IMG/VR virus record: IMGVR_UViG_2636416131_000002
Source: a virus
Taxonomy: Duplodnaviria; Heunggongvirae; Uroviricota; Caudoviricetes
DNA: 37,548 nt
Strand: one strand, 5' to 3'
The translations under genes were made by a program, and so were the position numbers. Positions 3,536 to 5,824 of the stretch are shown in pieces. Positions within the stretch are counted from its first letter, which is position 1; every line of letters begins with the position of its first letter. Under the pieces are notes generated by a model. The model did no database searches, was not told the DNA's origin, and saw nothing but the letters and a program-made list of their open reading frames with translations.

Positions 3536-3628
3536 TTTGTTTTAACCTCATGACAGATTTAAGGATGAACAAATCCCTGCCATTGCTGGCATATAAGAAT
3601 GAAACCGGATATTTATTACGGAACTGTT

Positions 3629-3820
3629 TTAAAGACCTGCCGGGATTTCGATATTATCCTGGTGAATAACTTTATCGACCGGGTAACAGTTACCGGGAAT
3701 TTTCTGTTCGGTTGCTGCAGTCATACACTCCTGCATTGTCCTGTGAACACTGACTGCAATATCAACTGGCACTCCGGAAACAAGAAAAACTGTCAGAACA
3801 AGCGCAAATGCTGAATTCAT
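3629..3820 (-). CDS. ydfD: YdfD-like small membrane lysis protein (63 aa)
   Basis: Internal start MNSAFALVLTVFLVSGVPVD… gives 63 aa with one hydrophobic helix. The ATG overlaps the dicB stop (ATGA). Matches Qin YdfD by length and remembered sequence. Confidence 0.75.
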   Translation of the reverse strand: MNSAFALVLTVFLVSGVPVDIAVSVHRTMQECMTAATEQKIPGNCYPVDKVIHQDNIEIPAGL

Positions 3821-4005
3821 TGTGCACATCCTTTTGGCATCAGACGTAAACGAGCCAGCATTGAAACAATGCATATTTTATTTAATAGCTCCCGTTCTTG
3901 TTTTCTCTTGTTAATGGCATCTTCAGTAAATACAGGGTTACTGATAGTGACACCAATTTCAAAACAACCTTCAGACGTATTAACGTTTGGTAATAACGTT
4001 TTCAT
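3817..4005 (-). CDS. dicB: DicB cell-division inhibitor (62 aa)
   Basis: MKTLLPNVNTSEGCFEIGVTISNPVFTEDAINKRKQERELLNKICIVSMLARLRLMPKGCAQ, 62 aa, GAGGA ribosome-binding site upstream, immediately downstream of DicF. Confidence 0.9.
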   Translation of the reverse strand: MKTLLPNVNTSEGCFEIGVTISNPVFTEDAINKRKQERELLNKICIVSMLARLRLMPKGCAQ

Positions 4006-4175
4006 TATCGCGTCCTCAACAATGAATTCTGTGATGCAGTGCCTGGTGCCTCCAGGTGACGTTAACCAGTTAACAATTAACGTCGGATACAGAGAATCCA
4101 CCCATAACACTGTTTTTGGTTTTAACTGTTCCGCGTGCGCTTAGCCGTATTCACCGCATCACAAAATTCACTTTA

Positions 4176-4232
4176 AAAAGGGCGGCAGAGCAGTCACGGA
4201 GTAAAACTGATACCGCCAAACGTCACCAGAAA
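4176..4232 (-). ncRNA. dicF: DicF small RNA (Hfq-dependent, ftsZ-targeting) with its intrinsic terminator
   Basis: Reverse complement of 4176-4232 reads TTTCTGGTGACGTTTGGCGGTATCAGTTTTACTCCGTGACTGCTCTGCCGCCCTTTTT, matching DicF as I recall it; GC stem followed by a U run. Confidence 0.9.
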
Positions 4233-4263
4233 ATTGATAACAGAGGGCGTTGCAGCGGGGTTG

Positions 4264-4455
4264 TCACTTAAGCGTATGGTCAACCTGACAACCCGGTGTC
4301 CTCAACGGGGAAGGAATAACCCCGCCATACTTACCGCCGCGCCATTTTGCGGGTTGCCACAACCGGAAGCGCACGGTCGAATTAAATTTAACGACACCGT
4401 ACAGTGAGACGAACTTCGCCGTGCGCTTTCGTGTTGTGTGCCTGCTTTTAACCAC
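4264..4455 (-). CDS. YdfC-like ORF upstream of DicF; may instead be DicF precursor leader
   Basis: 63-aa GTG-initiated frame in a GC-rich, structured region directly 5' of DicF. Coding status uncertain. Confidence 0.25.
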   Translation of the reverse strand: MVKSRHTTRKRTAKFVSLYGVVKFNSTVRFRLWQPAKWRGGKYGGVIPSPLRTPGCQVDHTLK

Positions 4456-4470
4456 GTCAGGCGAGGTGGT

Positions 4471-4499
4471 ATCCTTAAAATCACCACAGTTTTAAGGAT
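4471..4499. repeat. Perfect 10-bp inverted repeat ATCCTTAAAA / TTTTAAGGAT with 9-bp spacer
   Basis: Read directly. Lies at the stop of the minus-strand 205-aa ORF and 11 nt upstream of the plus-strand ORF at 4510. No U tract follows on either strand, so not a typical intrinsic terminator. Confidence 0.6.
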
Positions 4500-5067
4500 T
4501 CATTAAGCAATGTCGCAACCACCAATAAATCCGCTTAAGAACATGAAAATTGATTACTGGTATAAAGCTCTTACAGTTGTTGGCGCTGCGTTGTTTGTCT
4601 TTAATGGAACGTCTTTTTTTGACAGATATCCCGTTGTTCCATTGGGTTTTTTGTCCTCCGGCATCTTTTTTATTGGTTTGGGGGAGTGGATTAATCACCC
4701 TCTCATAGTGAGATTTATTGGTCCTGGAGTTTGGACTCGTGGATATAATCGTTCTTCGTGCGCACTCGGTATCATCTTCGACATACTTGGTTGTTTCCTG
4801 ATTGTTACAGGAGTCGTCAAGTTCTTCTGATGTAAAACCGCAAATGGGGCACGTAACGGGAATTTTGAAAAGCGTTTCTCCGGGTTCCAGAACAAAATTT
4901 TCTGCGGTCTGATTTTGCTTCTCATATTTGTGCTCCGCGTCATTGTGAGAGCACATTCTTATTCTGAGTGCCTGTTTAAACTCACTGAAGCTGAGAGCTT
5001 CTTCGCCTTCGGCAAGGCCTTCGAAGTATTCTTCGTAAGCCTTTTCCATGATTGTGTCGAAATCCAT
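4492..5067 (-). CDS. Hypothetical protein with YdfB-like N-terminus (MDFDTIMEKAYEEYFEG…); frame stays open 191 codons
   Basis: AGGTGA ribosome-binding site before the ATG at 5067, directly after the upstream gene's stop. N-terminal ~80 residues look protein-like; the C-terminal ~100 residues are N/K/R/S-rich and overlap the plus-strand membrane ORF. Confidence 0.4.
   Translation of the reverse strand: MDFDTIMEKAYEEYFEGLAEGEEALSFSEFKQALRIRMCSHNDAEHKYEKQNQTAENFVLEPGETLFKIPVTCPICGFTSEELDDSCNNQETTKYVEDDTECARRTIISTSPNSRTNKSHYERVINPLPQTNKKDAGGQKTQWNNGISVKKRRSIKDKQRSANNCKSFIPVINFHVLKRIYWWLRHCLMNP
4510..4830 (+). CDS. Putative small inner-membrane protein (about 3 predicted transmembrane helices), antisense to the leftward operon
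   Basis: 106-aa ORF with three hydrophobic stretches (ALTVVGAALFVF; GFLSSGIFFIGLG; ALGIIFDILGCFLIVTGVV). AAGGA 11 nt upstream of ATG. Fully overlapped by the minus-strand ORF 4492..5109; only one is likely real here. Confidence 0.35.
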   Translation: MSQPPINPLKNMKIDYWYKALTVVGAALFVFNGTSFFDRYPVVPLGFLSSGIFFIGLGEWINHPLIVRFIGPGVWTRGYNRSSCALGIIFDILGCFLIVTGVVKFF

Positions 5068-5068
5068 A

Positions 5069-5224
5069 TCACTCACCTGAGTTTCTTTCCAGCCAGCGAC
5101 GGGCACCATTTTCGGTTTTAAACGTTTTGCTTTTGGTATACGTCATCGCGGTGAACGTGCCGTCCTGGTTGGGGAACACGCCACATACCAGAGATTCGCT
5201 GTTGCCAAGATCGATAGTATCCAT
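5069..5224 (-). CDS. YdfA / YdaF-like small protein (51 aa)
   Basis: MDTIDLGNSESLVCGVFPNQDGTFTAMTYTKSKTFKTENGARRWLERNSGE, GAGGT ribosome-binding site upstream, first gene after the leftward promoter. Length matches the K-12 ydfA/ydaF paralogs. Confidence 0.6.
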   Translation of the reverse strand: MDTIDLGNSESLVCGVFPNQDGTFTAMTYTKSKTFKTENGARRWLERNSGE

Positions 5225-5300
5225 GCTGACCTCATTTCCCCTTAACGCCGGGGTAGCGGAACTGTTTGCTGAGAACACCGTGCGGTGTCTTGATGGAGGT

Positions 5301-5416: not shown

Positions 5417-5824
5417 TTATTGATGCTTGTTGCGTTTGCGAGCCTCTAATAGCTCGGTGAACAGGCGATTAAAATTCTCAACGCGGGCGCGGAGTTCGCT
5501 GAGTTGTGCTTGTTGCTCTGATTTAGGAAGTGCGCGATACAAACGCAGCATCTCTAACTCATCTTCCGATAAGTCTAAGGCACTATCGAGTGAAACAGGG
5601 GGAGCTGGTGTTTTGTCCTCGTCGCCAAACAGTATCCAAGTTGGTGAACATTGCAATACCTCGGCGAGGCGATGCAAATTTTGCCCGCGCGGGGCTGTAT
5701 GGTCACTTTCCCATAATGAAATTGATGAGCCAGATACGCCAGCAGCTTTGCTTAAACCGTTTTGACTTAAGCCTACCTGCTTACGTCTTTCTCTAATGCG
5801 TTGACCTAAAGTTTTCTCGTTCAT
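5417..5824 (-). CDS. dicA: DicA / RacR-family HTH (XRE-type) prophage repressor, 135 aa from the internal ATG
   Basis: HTH region QVGLSQNGLSKAAGVSGSSISLWE and the motif LQCSPTWILFGDEDK, which I recall from DicA. Divergent from a Cro-like gene. An in-frame upstream ATG at 5875 (152 aa) sits inside the operator palindrome and could serve a leaderless transcript. Confidence 0.7.
   Translation of the reverse strand: MNEKTLGQRIRERRKQVGLSQNGLSKAAGVSGSSISLWESDHTAPRGQNLHRLAEVLQCSPTWILFGDEDKTPAPPVSLDSALDLSEDELEMLRLYRALPKSEQQAQLSELRARVENFNRLFTELLEARKRNKHQ

Follow-up and report, generated by a model that had tools for sequence, protein, structure and literature searches.

A putative two-strand module of temperate phages: a small membrane-protein gene and an early-operon reading frame in antisense register

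Related systems

Convincing cases of antisense overlapping protein genes are few in bacteria and phages. The reported ones are mostly young and taxonomically narrow, and are backed mainly by expression data. Such genes have been described in Escherichia coli O157:H7 and Pseudomonas aeruginosa (PMC9927249, PMC5960689, PMC8850804; reviewed in PMC7457138). As at the prophage locus described here, an ORF is embedded antisense in a coding gene, and an older, conserved partner is combined with a weakly constrained overprinted frame. Unlike those genes, the present pair is known from evolutionary evidence, across lineages whose membrane proteins are ~35–50% identical, and it possesses a conserved N-terminal element outside the overlap and a fixed place in the phage regulatory region. 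Purifying selection on the older partner and maintenance of the second frame beyond chance were both found here; within the overlap, the second frame showed no constraint at the amino-acid level.

Among the accessory genes of lambdoid phages, sieB and esc lie on one strand and in one frame, and rexAB shares its transcript with cI. Lysogens express rexAB of lambda, sieB/esc of lambda and P22, and sieA of P22 (PMC10883804), all of them situated by the immunity region. They share with the present pair a position adjoining the repressor, in or beside the early-left operon, a small membrane product and a possible exclusion-plus-escape logic. No sequence or profile similarity links the pair to rexAB, sieB or sieA and, unlike in sieB/esc and rexAB, the products here are encoded on opposite strands, with the membrane gene opposing the early operon.

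Morons, as usually described, are independent units with their own promoter and terminator, inserted between two phage genes. The locus resembles them in the lower GC content of its cassette (0.42 vs. 0.49 for the window, i.e., the whole 37,548-nt stretch of phage DNA that was analyzed), a candidate promoter of its own, a position between conserved phage genes, and occurrence in many unrelated phage backgrounds. Unlike in morons, a reading frame of the host operon is extended through the insert and maintained. Convergent or overlapping transcription near a switch, and a small hydrophobic protein opposed by the other strand, are also features of lambda oop/cII, P22 sar/ant and hok/mok/sok. The antisense transcript there is short and non-coding (mok being a same-strand overlapping frame), whereas here the partner is an ORF of ~150–200 codons, and the membrane protein, with 106 aa and three helices, exceeds the usual size of type I toxins. 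A type I toxin-antitoxin locus, with a hydrophobic toxin of <60 aa and a short cis-antisense RNA, was rejected as a candidate, the 106-aa protein being opposed by a long ORF of an operon mRNA.

DicF arises by processing of the polycistronic dicBF mRNA (PMC5069750; bioRxiv 10.1101/2023.04.14.536235), a transcript on which RNase E and RNase III act (PMC5069750). Rho-dependent termination is not discussed in the dicBF regulation paper, and the literature searched does not cover a variant of the locus with the cassette described below.

Organization of the locus

The window shares ydfA, ydfB codons 1–34, DicF, dicB and ydfD with the ydfA-ydfB-ydfC-dicF-dicB operon of the K-12 Qin prophage, at 96–97% nucleotide identity. 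By blastn against K-12 Qin, positions 5295–4967 correspond to ydfA and ydfB codons 1–34 (97% identity), with no further match until 4449. The recombination junction lies at 4966/4967, and a 517-bp cassette (4450..4966) stands where K-12 has 396 bp made up of the ydfB 3' end, ydfC and the next 120 bp. Where K-12 Qin encodes a 42-aa YdfB and a 72-aa YdfC, the window thus carries a two-strand cassette, ydfC being absent from the window and the membrane gene from K-12 Qin.

On the minus strand, the ORF listing gives a frame at 4492..5109 (−), with 205 aa from an in-frame upstream ATG at 5109 and 191 codons from the YdfB-type ATG at 5067 (4492..5067), ending in a TAA stop at 4494–4492. It is composed of the YdfB N-terminus (5067–4967), a cassette-derived N-terminal element and a 111-aa hydrophilic antisense tail. 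The YdfB N-terminal sequence MDFDTIMEKAYEEYFEGLAEGEEALSFSEFKQAL directly follows ydfA; the 42-aa length, C-terminus and stop of K-12 YdfB, followed by ydfC, were not found, and the frame runs 157 codons further. On the plus strand, a 106-aa ORF (4510..4830, +) is antisense to the early-left (dicB-type) operon and converges on the DicA/CI-type HTH repressor gene (5417..5824, −; Pfam HTH_3, PGAP). Since 4492 and 4510 are both 1 mod 3, the two ORFs use the same triplets, which yields a fully registered antisense frame, and ~320 bases adjoining the prophage repressor gene carry both ORFs, one per strand. A preliminary description of the region, based on the sequence alone, had pointed to this doubly coded segment of a 205-aa minus frame and a 106-aa plus ORF, and to the YdfB-like start of a frame that stays open for 191 codons; both are confirmed, the latter by the identity of codons 1–34 with K-12 ydfB. 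The left boundary that it had set at 4264 has no special meaning; 4232–4449, on the upstream side of DicF, resembles K-12.

Upstream of the minus ORF lies ydfA (5069..5224, −; DUF1391, Pfam PF07151, E=7.9e-27; PGAP). Its stop codon is read in the sequence 1 nt before the ydfB-type ATG, which suggests that ydfA and the minus ORF are translationally coupled. The fused ydfB codons 1–34 (4967..5067, −) fall in the stretch 4966–5067, which PGAP calls a 'ydfB, missing C-terminus' pseudogene. Downstream of the pair, the early-left transcript includes the DicF sRNA (4180..4231, −; Rfam RF00039, 76.7 bits), which lies within ~490 nt directly downstream of the minus ORF (4005–4492) that are untranslated.

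The phage copies of the pair invariably occupy the first or second gene position beyond the repressor/cro switch; the minus ORF runs with the early operon in every case, and the plus gene lies antisense to that ORF. Both pL-type and pR-type arrangements are observed; in the latter, the pair follows cro (in lineage L187 it is flanked by cro and a cII-like gene) or comes first after a divergent repressor. It is kept in ~20 phage lineages at only ~35–50% membrane-protein identity, and spans phages of Enterobacteriaceae and apparently also a Roseateles locus. The minus ORF is fused in frame to neighboring genes at both ends across strains, to ydfB here and to ydfC in P0067-70 and L225. Functional RNAs follow on the same transcript, namely DicF here and tRNAs in L011-13, and the same cassette is present in phages that lack DicF.

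The two reading frames and their signals

The plus-strand ORF is, judged by its homologues and substitution pattern, a real gene for a conserved small membrane protein. A homology search returned 60 homologues with 34–99% identity, in whose alignment invariant columns are visible, and a profile search extended the family to 484 protein clusters at E<=1e-3. Homologues are found in Yersinia, Pantoea, Herminiimonas, Reinekea, Desulfobacterota and others, and the motifs DYWYKA (residues 15–20) and GLGEWINHP (residues 56–64) are invariant in the family. Outside phages, the gene also occurs as an ordinary single gene with no antisense ORF. In viral-contig scans, near-identical copies filled the match lists of the window-type and P0013-type proteins, and the Yersinia protein gave no matches. 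Within phage lineages, plus-frame dN/dS is 0.07–0.19, with pS saturated at 0.68–0.8, and differences are concentrated at codon position 3 (e.g., 11/7/34 by codon position); the Pantoea and mEp390 copies differ with a pS of 0.79 and a pN of 0.18. These comparisons indicate that the plus protein is under strong purifying selection. The attention that the preliminary description had drawn to this ORF because of its position by the immunity region proved justified: it has homologues in many bacteria and phages, and the phage copies always adjoin the repressor/cro switch.

The AlphaFold2 model of the plus protein comprises helices at residues 17–32, 42–62 and 85–105 and a beta-hairpin at 65–79, with a mean pLDDT of 84. 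The helices have mean Kyte-Doolittle hydropathies of 1.28, 1.38 and 2.16, and only the third passes the strict 19-residue hydropathy threshold; the earlier wording of 'three clear transmembrane helices' therefore holds for the number of predicted helices and is slightly generous for the first two. The protein matched no Pfam, PHROG, PADLOC or NCBIfam model, and several homologues of the two proteins likewise had no functional match in these four collections. Neither protein matched known exclusion or defence families (Pfam, PHROGs beyond families of unknown function, PADLOC, NCBIfam), and fold searches returned no informative match for either. A class I holin was considered, as ~106 aa and three helices would fit, but the gene lies at the immunity region and not in the lysis cassette; no holin family in Pfam or PHROGs was matched, and the sole holin fold match was insignificant (E=0.98). 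Position by the repressor and membrane topology are consistent with a prophage-expressed membrane protein that blocks superinfection, and the sieB-like role raised in the preliminary description is a tentative analogy.

Upstream of the plus ORF, the reported 10-bp palindrome (4471..4499) was verified as perfect, with arms ATCCTTAAAA/TTTTAAGGAT at 4471–4480/4490–4499 and a 9-nt loop. In a Markov-1 sequence of equal composition and 1.2 kb length, 0.013 such repeats would occur by chance. The hairpin is placed between the minus-ORF stop, which falls inside its right arm, and the plus-ORF start, and the right arm also bears AAGGA, 11 nt upstream of the plus ATG. Type-1 lineages retain it, with arm changes that compensate each other (AAAA/TTTT, AAAGC/GCTTT, AAAGG/CCTTT) as read from single-sequence folds; the Pantoea and mEp390 lineages do not have it. 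In addition, a block at 4438..4475 (+), GTGCCTG..TTTTA.CCAC.TCAGGC..GTGGTATCCT, is near-invariant across five lineages whose coding sequences are only 51–88% identical at the amino-acid level. From this conservation and the consensus-like TGnTATCCT, we infer that TGgTATCCT at 4467–4475 is a candidate extended −10 promoter of the membrane gene. A simple promoter/terminator scan yielded nothing above shuffled expectation and did not flag the conserved block.

The minus ORF, on the comparative evidence, is not merely a shadow of the plus gene. Across phages, it starts 20–100 codons ahead of the overlap and then reads through the whole membrane gene, and the 19–33 minus codons outside the overlap show purifying selection and can be aligned across very distant lineages. 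In the window, the 19 codons just outside the overlap (EPGETLFKIPVTCPICGFT; 4831..4887, −), which include a CPxCG motif, vary mostly at synonymous sites. At seven conserved residues of this element, codon differences between lineages occur only at minus-frame third positions (ATT/ATC/ATA, CCC/CCA/CCG/CCT, TGC/TGT, GGT/GGA, TTT/TTC). In the minus frame, pS exceeds pN in 10/10 pairs (e.g., 0.77 vs. 0.20), and in the plus-register frame pS is not consistently above pN. The Pantoea/mEp390 type likewise has a minus-frame pS of 0.80 and a pN of 0.42. The element is alignable across three sequence types (the window type with type 2 and type 3 lineages) and generally comprises ~23 residues, P-G-x-V-x-I...CPxCG[FC]/VxLxGW-x-L-x-E-F. 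The ATG of the minus ORF is preceded by a GAGG-type ribosome-binding site in L015, L016 and L010, and L015/L016-type copies use that of ydfA (AAGGGGAAATGAGGTCAAxATG).

Two other views of the element were rejected. That the CPxCG motif marks a zinc ribbon is unsupported, as there is no second conserved Cys/His pair and type-2 lineages have V-T-L-T for CPxC. Nor does the element appear to mirror, in antisense, a coding or RNA signal of the plus strand, because it varies at minus-frame third positions and its plus-register translation is not conserved (KTANGA vs. ESANRA). The minus ORF matches PHROG 35040, and its residues 1–34 match PHROG 2061.

Within the overlap, the minus frame is without a stop across the 106 plus codons in this window and in other lineages. 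A single open antisense frame of this length is not rare, since 22% of the 106-codon antisense stretches in real genes of the window are stop-free. Across 20 element-bearing phage lineages, 12 antisense stops were counted vs. 78.5 expected (Poisson P~1e-20, an optimistic value because lineage representatives are not fully independent), and in 18 lineages without the element 99 were counted vs. 84.5 expected. The antisense frame of element-less homologues is closed. In every enterobacterial prophage copy, none of the 8–11 Leu and 4–6 Ser codons is TTA, CTA or TCA, at a GC3 of ~0.4; the Leu codons are CTT, TTG and CTC and not the optimal CTG, so that translational codon bias fails to explain the pattern.

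The amino-acid sequence behind this openness varies freely. Minus-frame dN/dS in the overlap is 1.1–1.6 in close pairs (about 1–1.6) and 0.5–0.8 in deep pairs, where it is saturated, and the Pantoea and mEp390 copies give a pS of 0.32 and a pN of 0.33. These values indicate that the minus amino-acid sequence within the overlap is unconstrained and that only the openness of the frame is kept. The tail is rich in N, K, S, R and T, which is what the antisense of hydrophobic codons yields, the minus RNA contains little G across the overlap (A 0.38, C 0.22, G 0.19), and an AlphaFold2 model of the minus protein from the single sequence reached a pLDDT of 41 and gave no structural information. Some natural copies carry a nonsense or frameshift change in the minus ORF (GGA>TGA in L016; a K148* haplotype). 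Among 113 near-identical copies (28 haplotypes, with few polymorphisms), 7 synonymous and 9 non-synonymous changes were counted in the plus frame, and 5 synonymous and 11 non-synonymous changes plus one nonsense change in the minus frame, numbers too small to tell the frames apart. In Burkholderia phages, the plus gene is antisense in an operon and the antisense frame is not open.

Interpretation of the pair

We put at roughly 0.6 the probability that 4450–4966 is a two-strand module that moves among temperate phages and encodes two proteins in antisense register on one stretch of DNA. The preliminary description had treated the two ORFs as competitors, one real and the other an artefact; its membrane ORF stands as a real gene, and the comparative data indicate that both frames are maintained. 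As to function, our best guess is a lysogen-expressed membrane protein and an early ORF that is translated through the membrane gene. In the lysogen, the early promoter would be silenced by the repressor and the membrane gene transcribed from its own extended −10 promoter (4467–4475), giving a prophage-expressed accessory product, most plausibly of the exclusion or abortive-infection type. Upon derepression, early transcription and translation would proceed antisense across the membrane gene, shutting it off and producing the minus protein, whose functional part would be the short N-terminal element. The open tail may be needed for ribosome cover of the early transcript toward DicF/dicB, against polarity or decay; alternatively, a generic hydrophilic tail may be required. 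At this locus, recombination would have joined the minus ORF in frame to ydfB codons 1–34.

The support for the pair is evolutionary and the pair is old, and matched controls, the non-phage homologues, do not have the two-strand arrangement. The locus thereby offers a system for asking why an antisense frame stays open while its sequence drifts, whether for anti-polarity translation, as a disordered tail or as an antidote. Lying at the lysis-lysogeny switch and, in E. coli, immediately ahead of DicF/dicB, the module may also affect the expression of these host-acting regulators. Against the explanation stand the Burkholderia phages with their closed antisense frame and the natural copies with a broken minus ORF. 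The anti-polarity rationale is weakened by the ~490-nt untranslated stretch and also leaves the conservation of the N-terminal element unexplained.

An appreciably less probable explanation is that translation matters and not its product: ribosome cover of the early transcript across the membrane gene would avert Rho-dependent termination, or else RNase III decay after pairing with the plus mRNA, and the minus protein would be functionless. This would account for strong stop depletion at an overlap dN/dS of ~1–1.6 and is in line with the in-frame fusions to neighboring ORFs at either end, the tight coupling to ydfA (stop, 1 nt, ATG), the G-poor minus RNA, and the presence of functional RNAs or genes downstream on the same transcript (PMC5069750). 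It leaves unexplained, however, the 19–33 selected codons outside the overlap that align across very distant lineages; moreover, the ~490 nt that follow are untranslated anyway, and a closed antisense frame is tolerated in the Burkholderia phages.

Less likely again, and to be held only tentatively, is a functional couple on opposite strands, in which the membrane protein would be a lysogen effector (of exclusion, abortive infection or holin-like killing) and the overprinted minus product its immediate-early antidote or regulator, comparable to SieB and Esc of P22/lambda. Complete overlap would mean that recombination in mosaic phages never separates the two. Such a couple would fit with a pair that always travels as a unit between pL/pR contexts and unrelated immunity regions, with the invariably immediate-early minus ORF and antisense plus gene, with membrane genes outside phages that have no antisense ORF, and with the conserved N-terminal element, which suggests a function at the protein level. 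Against it, no known defence model is matched, most of the minus protein consists of the unconstrained tail, and the basis is purely position and analogy. If true, it would represent a 'self-immunity' module of two proteins that complete antisense overlap holds together and that has spread as one unit among temperate phages.

That only the membrane gene is real, its minus frame being open by chance or codon bias and favored by gene callers for its greater length, is very unlikely. A registered antisense frame is the one most often open, and the stop-free share of antisense stretches in window genes, the composition of the tail, a minus-frame dN/dS of at least 1 in the overlap and the low pLDDT of the minus model are all in line with this explanation. 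It is contradicted by stop depletion in 20 synonymous-saturated lineages and its absence from 18 element-less ones, by Leu codons other than the optimal one, and by the conserved, synonymously varying element that, with start codon and ribosome-binding site, runs directly into the frame. Finally, the alternative in the preliminary description, merely structured DicF-precursor RNA and no real long ORF on either strand, can be dismissed as refuted, despite DicF 260 nt downstream (−), the processing of the dicBF transcript by RNase E/RNase III (PMC5069750) and the conserved hairpin at 4471–4499, because K-12 precursor homology (3600–4449) stops short of the different cassette at 4450–4966 and both frames have coding signatures, the plus frame with protein-level selection and distant protein homologues; in addition, the DicF Rfam model matches 4180–4231 only, no Rfam family matches within 4232–5109, and the same cassette occurs in phages that lack DicF.

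The module also exposes an annotation gap, in that neither Pfam, NCBIfam nor PHROGs offers a model for the conserved membrane-protein family of 484 clusters. In hundreds of E. coli genomes, both ORFs are missing from the RefSeq/PGAP annotation, and current annotation holds at most one of the two genes: phage records and PHROGs contain the minus ORF only, and phages HannyBb (PP925841) and mEp390 are annotated on the minus strand.

Genomic setting and position of the pair

The window is an E. coli lambdoid prophage of the Qin/DicB type, in which the minus strand carries, in order, a DicA/CI-type repressor (5417-5824), ydfA (DUF1391; 5069-5224), a ydfB-like start at 5067, DicF (4180-4231; Rfam, 76.7 bits), dicB (3817-4005), ydfD and, last, a large exonuclease. 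Between the ydfB-like start and DicF, a 106-aa plus-strand membrane-protein ORF (4510-4830, the plus ORF) lies antisense to the tail of a 191-codon minus-strand ORF (4492-5067, the minus ORF; 205 aa from an upstream ATG at 5109). Sequence reading and ORF listing returned both ORFs and the palindrome at 4471-4499 exactly as the preliminary description had given them. Comparison with the K-12 ydfA-ydfB-ydfC interval by blastn revealed collinear flanks in Qin, comprising 5295-4967 (ydfA and ydfB codons 1-34, 97%) and 4449-3600 (from upstream of DicF through ydfD, 96.5%), with the K-12 ydfB 3' end and ydfC replaced by the 517-bp segment 4450-4966 (GC 0.42). At least 80% of 4200-5250 is present in 792 of 5,426 complete E. 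coli genomes, and the sole PGAP call in this region is a pseudogene, 'ydfB, missing C-terminus'. Elsewhere in the prophage, two full-length matches to the cspA thermoregulator 5'UTR (Rfam RF01766; 14872-15264 and 17775-18161, plus strand; 161 and 112 bits) indicate two cold-shock-protein genes.

The pair occupies the first or second gene position past the switch in every phage context inspected. In pL-type arrangements it lies downstream of the repressor on the same strand (the window, the comparison loci L191, L214 and L011-14, Yersinia and Pantoea); in pR-type arrangements (mEp390, L184, L187, L188, L206) it follows cro, with a cII-like gene on its other side in L187, or is the first ORF past a divergent repressor. 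The minus ORF always points the same way as the early operon, which the membrane gene opposes. Together, these comparisons show the pair travelling as a unit at the phage switch. In the window, ydfB codons 1-34 form the in-frame start of the minus ORF, and the ydfA stop lies 1 nt before the ATG; in L015/L016-type copies the minus ORF has taken over the ribosome-binding site and start position of ydfA, and in another E. coli variant it continues in frame into ydfC (271-280 aa). Downstream on the same transcript lie DicF in the window and tRNA genes in L011-13. These minus-strand Gly-CCC or Asn-GTT genes of the 58%-identity lineage (L011 4802-4875, L012 3952-4033, L013 3482-3563) come after the minus ORF and a conserved block on the early-left transcript, in the place of DicF. 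The dicBF mRNA is polycistronic, and its processing by RNase E and RNase III yields DicF (PMC5069750; bioRxiv 10.1101/2023.04.14.536235). The K-12-like DicF leader (4264-4487, minus strand) holds two further ORFs of 63 and 61 aa, for which no coding evidence was found; phage HannyBb annotates small CDSs in the matching stretch.

Annotation of the pair is inconsistent: PGAP annotates neither ORF, the minus ORF is carried by the phage HannyBb and phage mEp390 records and by PHROG 35040, and the plus ORF is annotated as gp33 in Burkholderia phage Bcep176. The record text of mEp390_039, the minus-strand ORF of the pair (L173, JQ182729, 2956-3411), reads 'similar to gp33 of Bcep176', and gp33 (L174 2884-3348) is the homologue of the plus-strand membrane protein, extended by 39 aa at its N-terminus, so that the two annotated proteins lie on opposite strands of homologous DNA. 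Antisense overlapping genes are known from E. coli O157:H7 and P. aeruginosa (PMC9927249, PMC5960689, PMC8850804), and, according to a review, antisense overlaps are little studied even in viruses (PMC7457138). No description of this pair was found in a non-exhaustive literature search. Among antisense gene pairs it is unusually old and is fixed in position, and its support is comparative rather than from expression.

The plus-strand membrane gene

A protein search with the membrane ORF recovered 60 relatives, the most distant at 34% identity and nearly all of 100-111 aa, with invariant Y16 W17 Y18 K19 A20 and G56 G58 E59 W60 N62 H63 P64. GTDB relatives occur in Proteobacteria and Desulfobacterota genomes and in Nitrospirales and Actinomycetes MAGs, and a family profile run against 1.84 billion representatives returned 484 clusters at E<=1e-3. 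No model in Pfam, PHROG, NCBIfam or PADLOC matched the protein. AlphaFold2 with the family alignment (pLDDT 84) predicted helices at 17-32, 42-62 and 85-105 and a beta-hairpin at 65-79; fold searches gave non-specific matches. Among prophage copies plus-frame dN/dS is 0.07-0.19, differences pile up at codon position 3 (11/7/34 for window versus L015), and between deep lineages synonymous sites are saturated (pS 0.68-0.8). Together, these results show the plus ORF to be a real gene under selection.

Outside phages, in the loci L005/L006 (Reinekea marinisedimentorum, 100-2800) and L007 (1309-3513), a homologue lies among small same-strand ORFs without Pfam matches, adjoining a ParD-like gene, and on a related contig the homologue is downstream of a reverse transcriptase (RVT_1); the setting resembles a cassette array or a defence island. 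Three identical-scoring copies at distant sites of an Arcobacter sp. chromosome (L028, L029, L030) suggest carriage on a repeated mobile element.

The antisense frame and its N-terminal element

The two ORFs share triplets, which places the minus ORF in the registered antisense frame. Sense TTA, CTA and TCA codons read as antisense stops in this frame, which is the one most prone to 'shadow' ORFs. Since 22% of 106-codon stretches in the real genes of the window lack such stops, the overlap by itself decides nothing. The frame holds zero stops in every enterobacterial prophage copy, namely the window type, L015 and L016 (84-88% aa identity), L011-14 (58%), Yersinia (51%), and Pantoea and phage mEp390 (39%). 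Their GC3 is 0.36-0.45, Ser codons number 3-6, and the 8-11 Leu codons are drawn from CTT, TTG, CTC and CTG, with TTA and CTA absent; at similar GC3, 1-17 antisense stops occur in non-phage homologues. About 25 further deep lineages (31-79% identity) came from an IMG/VR scan with the mEp390 protein, and in nearly all of them the antisense ORF spans 85-100% of the membrane gene. Lineages were sorted solely by presence of the N-terminal element, which sits outside the overlap, and expected stops were derived from Leu/Ser codon usage in each representative's own flanking genes. Motif-bearing representatives (n=20) had 12 antisense stops against 78.5 expected, 14 having none and the leftover stops falling in the plus-ORF 5' part, the natural minus-ORF end, whereas motif-less ones (n=18) had 99 against 84.5. 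The Poisson probability for the former, about 1e-20, is optimistic, as representatives are not fully independent, but the contrast between the two sets is still large.

The element itself (EPGETLFKIPVTCPICGFT at 4887-4831 in the window) lies upstream of the overlap, in the stretch into which the open frame extends. Its conserved codons vary between lineages at minus-frame third positions only (ATT/ATC/ATA, CCC/CCA/CCG/CCT, TGC/TGT, GGT/GGA, TTT/TTC), and minus-frame pS exceeds pN in 10/10 pairs (e.g., 0.77 vs 0.20), an excess that is not consistent in the plus-register frame. The Pantoea/mEp390 element looks different (M-D/N-Y-x-FFE-x-L....PGSV-x-I-D/N.....V-x-x-x-GW; pS 0.80 vs pN 0.42), and nearly all of the ~25 IMG/VR lineages bear this PGSV...GW form or a third, FPAG..VKPLYDKCPxCGCDL.EF. 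The three forms align around an invariant Gly without large gaps, and the open antisense frame of a Roseateles (Betaproteobacteria) locus holds ...PGATITPFYFNCPKCGHRL. The short element is constrained as protein. Within the overlap, close pairs show a minus-frame dN/dS of 1.1-1.6, and Pantoea versus mEp390 a value of about 1; the conserved patches RVINPL and FIPVINFH mirror the plus motifs GEWINHP and DYWYKA; and the 111-aa window tail is N/K/S/R/T-rich (net charge +8), as expected from the antisense of hydrophobic codons. Selection therefore holds the frame open while leaving its amino acids unconstrained. The minus ORF is thus more than a shadow: its reading frame is maintained, and its N-terminal element is conserved.

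In Yersinia enterocolitica, L008 and L010 differ by an A6/A7 homopolymer upstream of CPICGF that shifts the frame at the minus-ORF N-terminus; an in-frame ATG after GAGGA is present in the A7 version alone. The best inverted repeat of the region (4833-4854/5099-5120; 22 nt, 86% complementary, 244 nt between; chance about 0.002 by rough estimate) pairs the CPICGF-coding segment with the ydfA 3' end (FKTENGAR), so that plus-strand reading past the membrane-ORF stop (CKTANGARNGNFEKRFSG) resembles the YdfA C-terminus (KTENGARRWLERNSGE); this reading is not conserved in other lineages. The repeat could be the relic of an old inversion or could mediate long-range pairing within the early RNA.

Candidate regulatory signals and possible roles

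Upstream of the plus ATG, a ~40-nt block (4438-4475) is almost invariant where the proteins are only 51-88% identical and terminates in an extended -10-like TGgTATCCT, making it a candidate membrane-gene promoter. The palindrome shares bases with this -10-like sequence, with the minus stop codon and with an AAGGA that lies 11 nt upstream of the plus ATG. Type-1 lineages (those with the window's form of the element) keep it as a hairpin with compensatory arm changes, and the Pantoea/mEp390 type lacks it. It may serve as an operator, as a processing site or to stabilise RNA at a 5' or 3' end.

In a lysogen, the membrane protein would be made from its own promoter; upon induction, early transcription and translation would pass through the membrane gene, and this antisense passage would silence it and yield the minus protein. 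The favoured reason for the open tail is that translation shields the early transcript, or that a generic tail is needed, with the N-terminal element probably functioning as protein. An attractive but speculative alternative is that the minus protein might act as an Esc-like antidote. A pure anti-polarity role for the open frame is weakened by conservation of the element and by the ~490-nt untranslated DicF leader that comes next anyway. The frame being open without being a gene is disfavoured because of stop depletion, third-position variation and pS > pN in the element. The preliminary alternative of a DicF precursor only is likewise disfavoured by the K-12 blastn limits, the plus-protein homologues and plus-frame dN/dS.

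Natural strand-specific knock-outs exist. In L016, GGA>TGA within the CPVCG motif (4328-4330, minus frame) leaves the minus ORF dead and the plus ORF intact, and in one window-type haplotype 4668 T>A introduces a minus-frame stop (K148*) together with the plus-frame change F53L.
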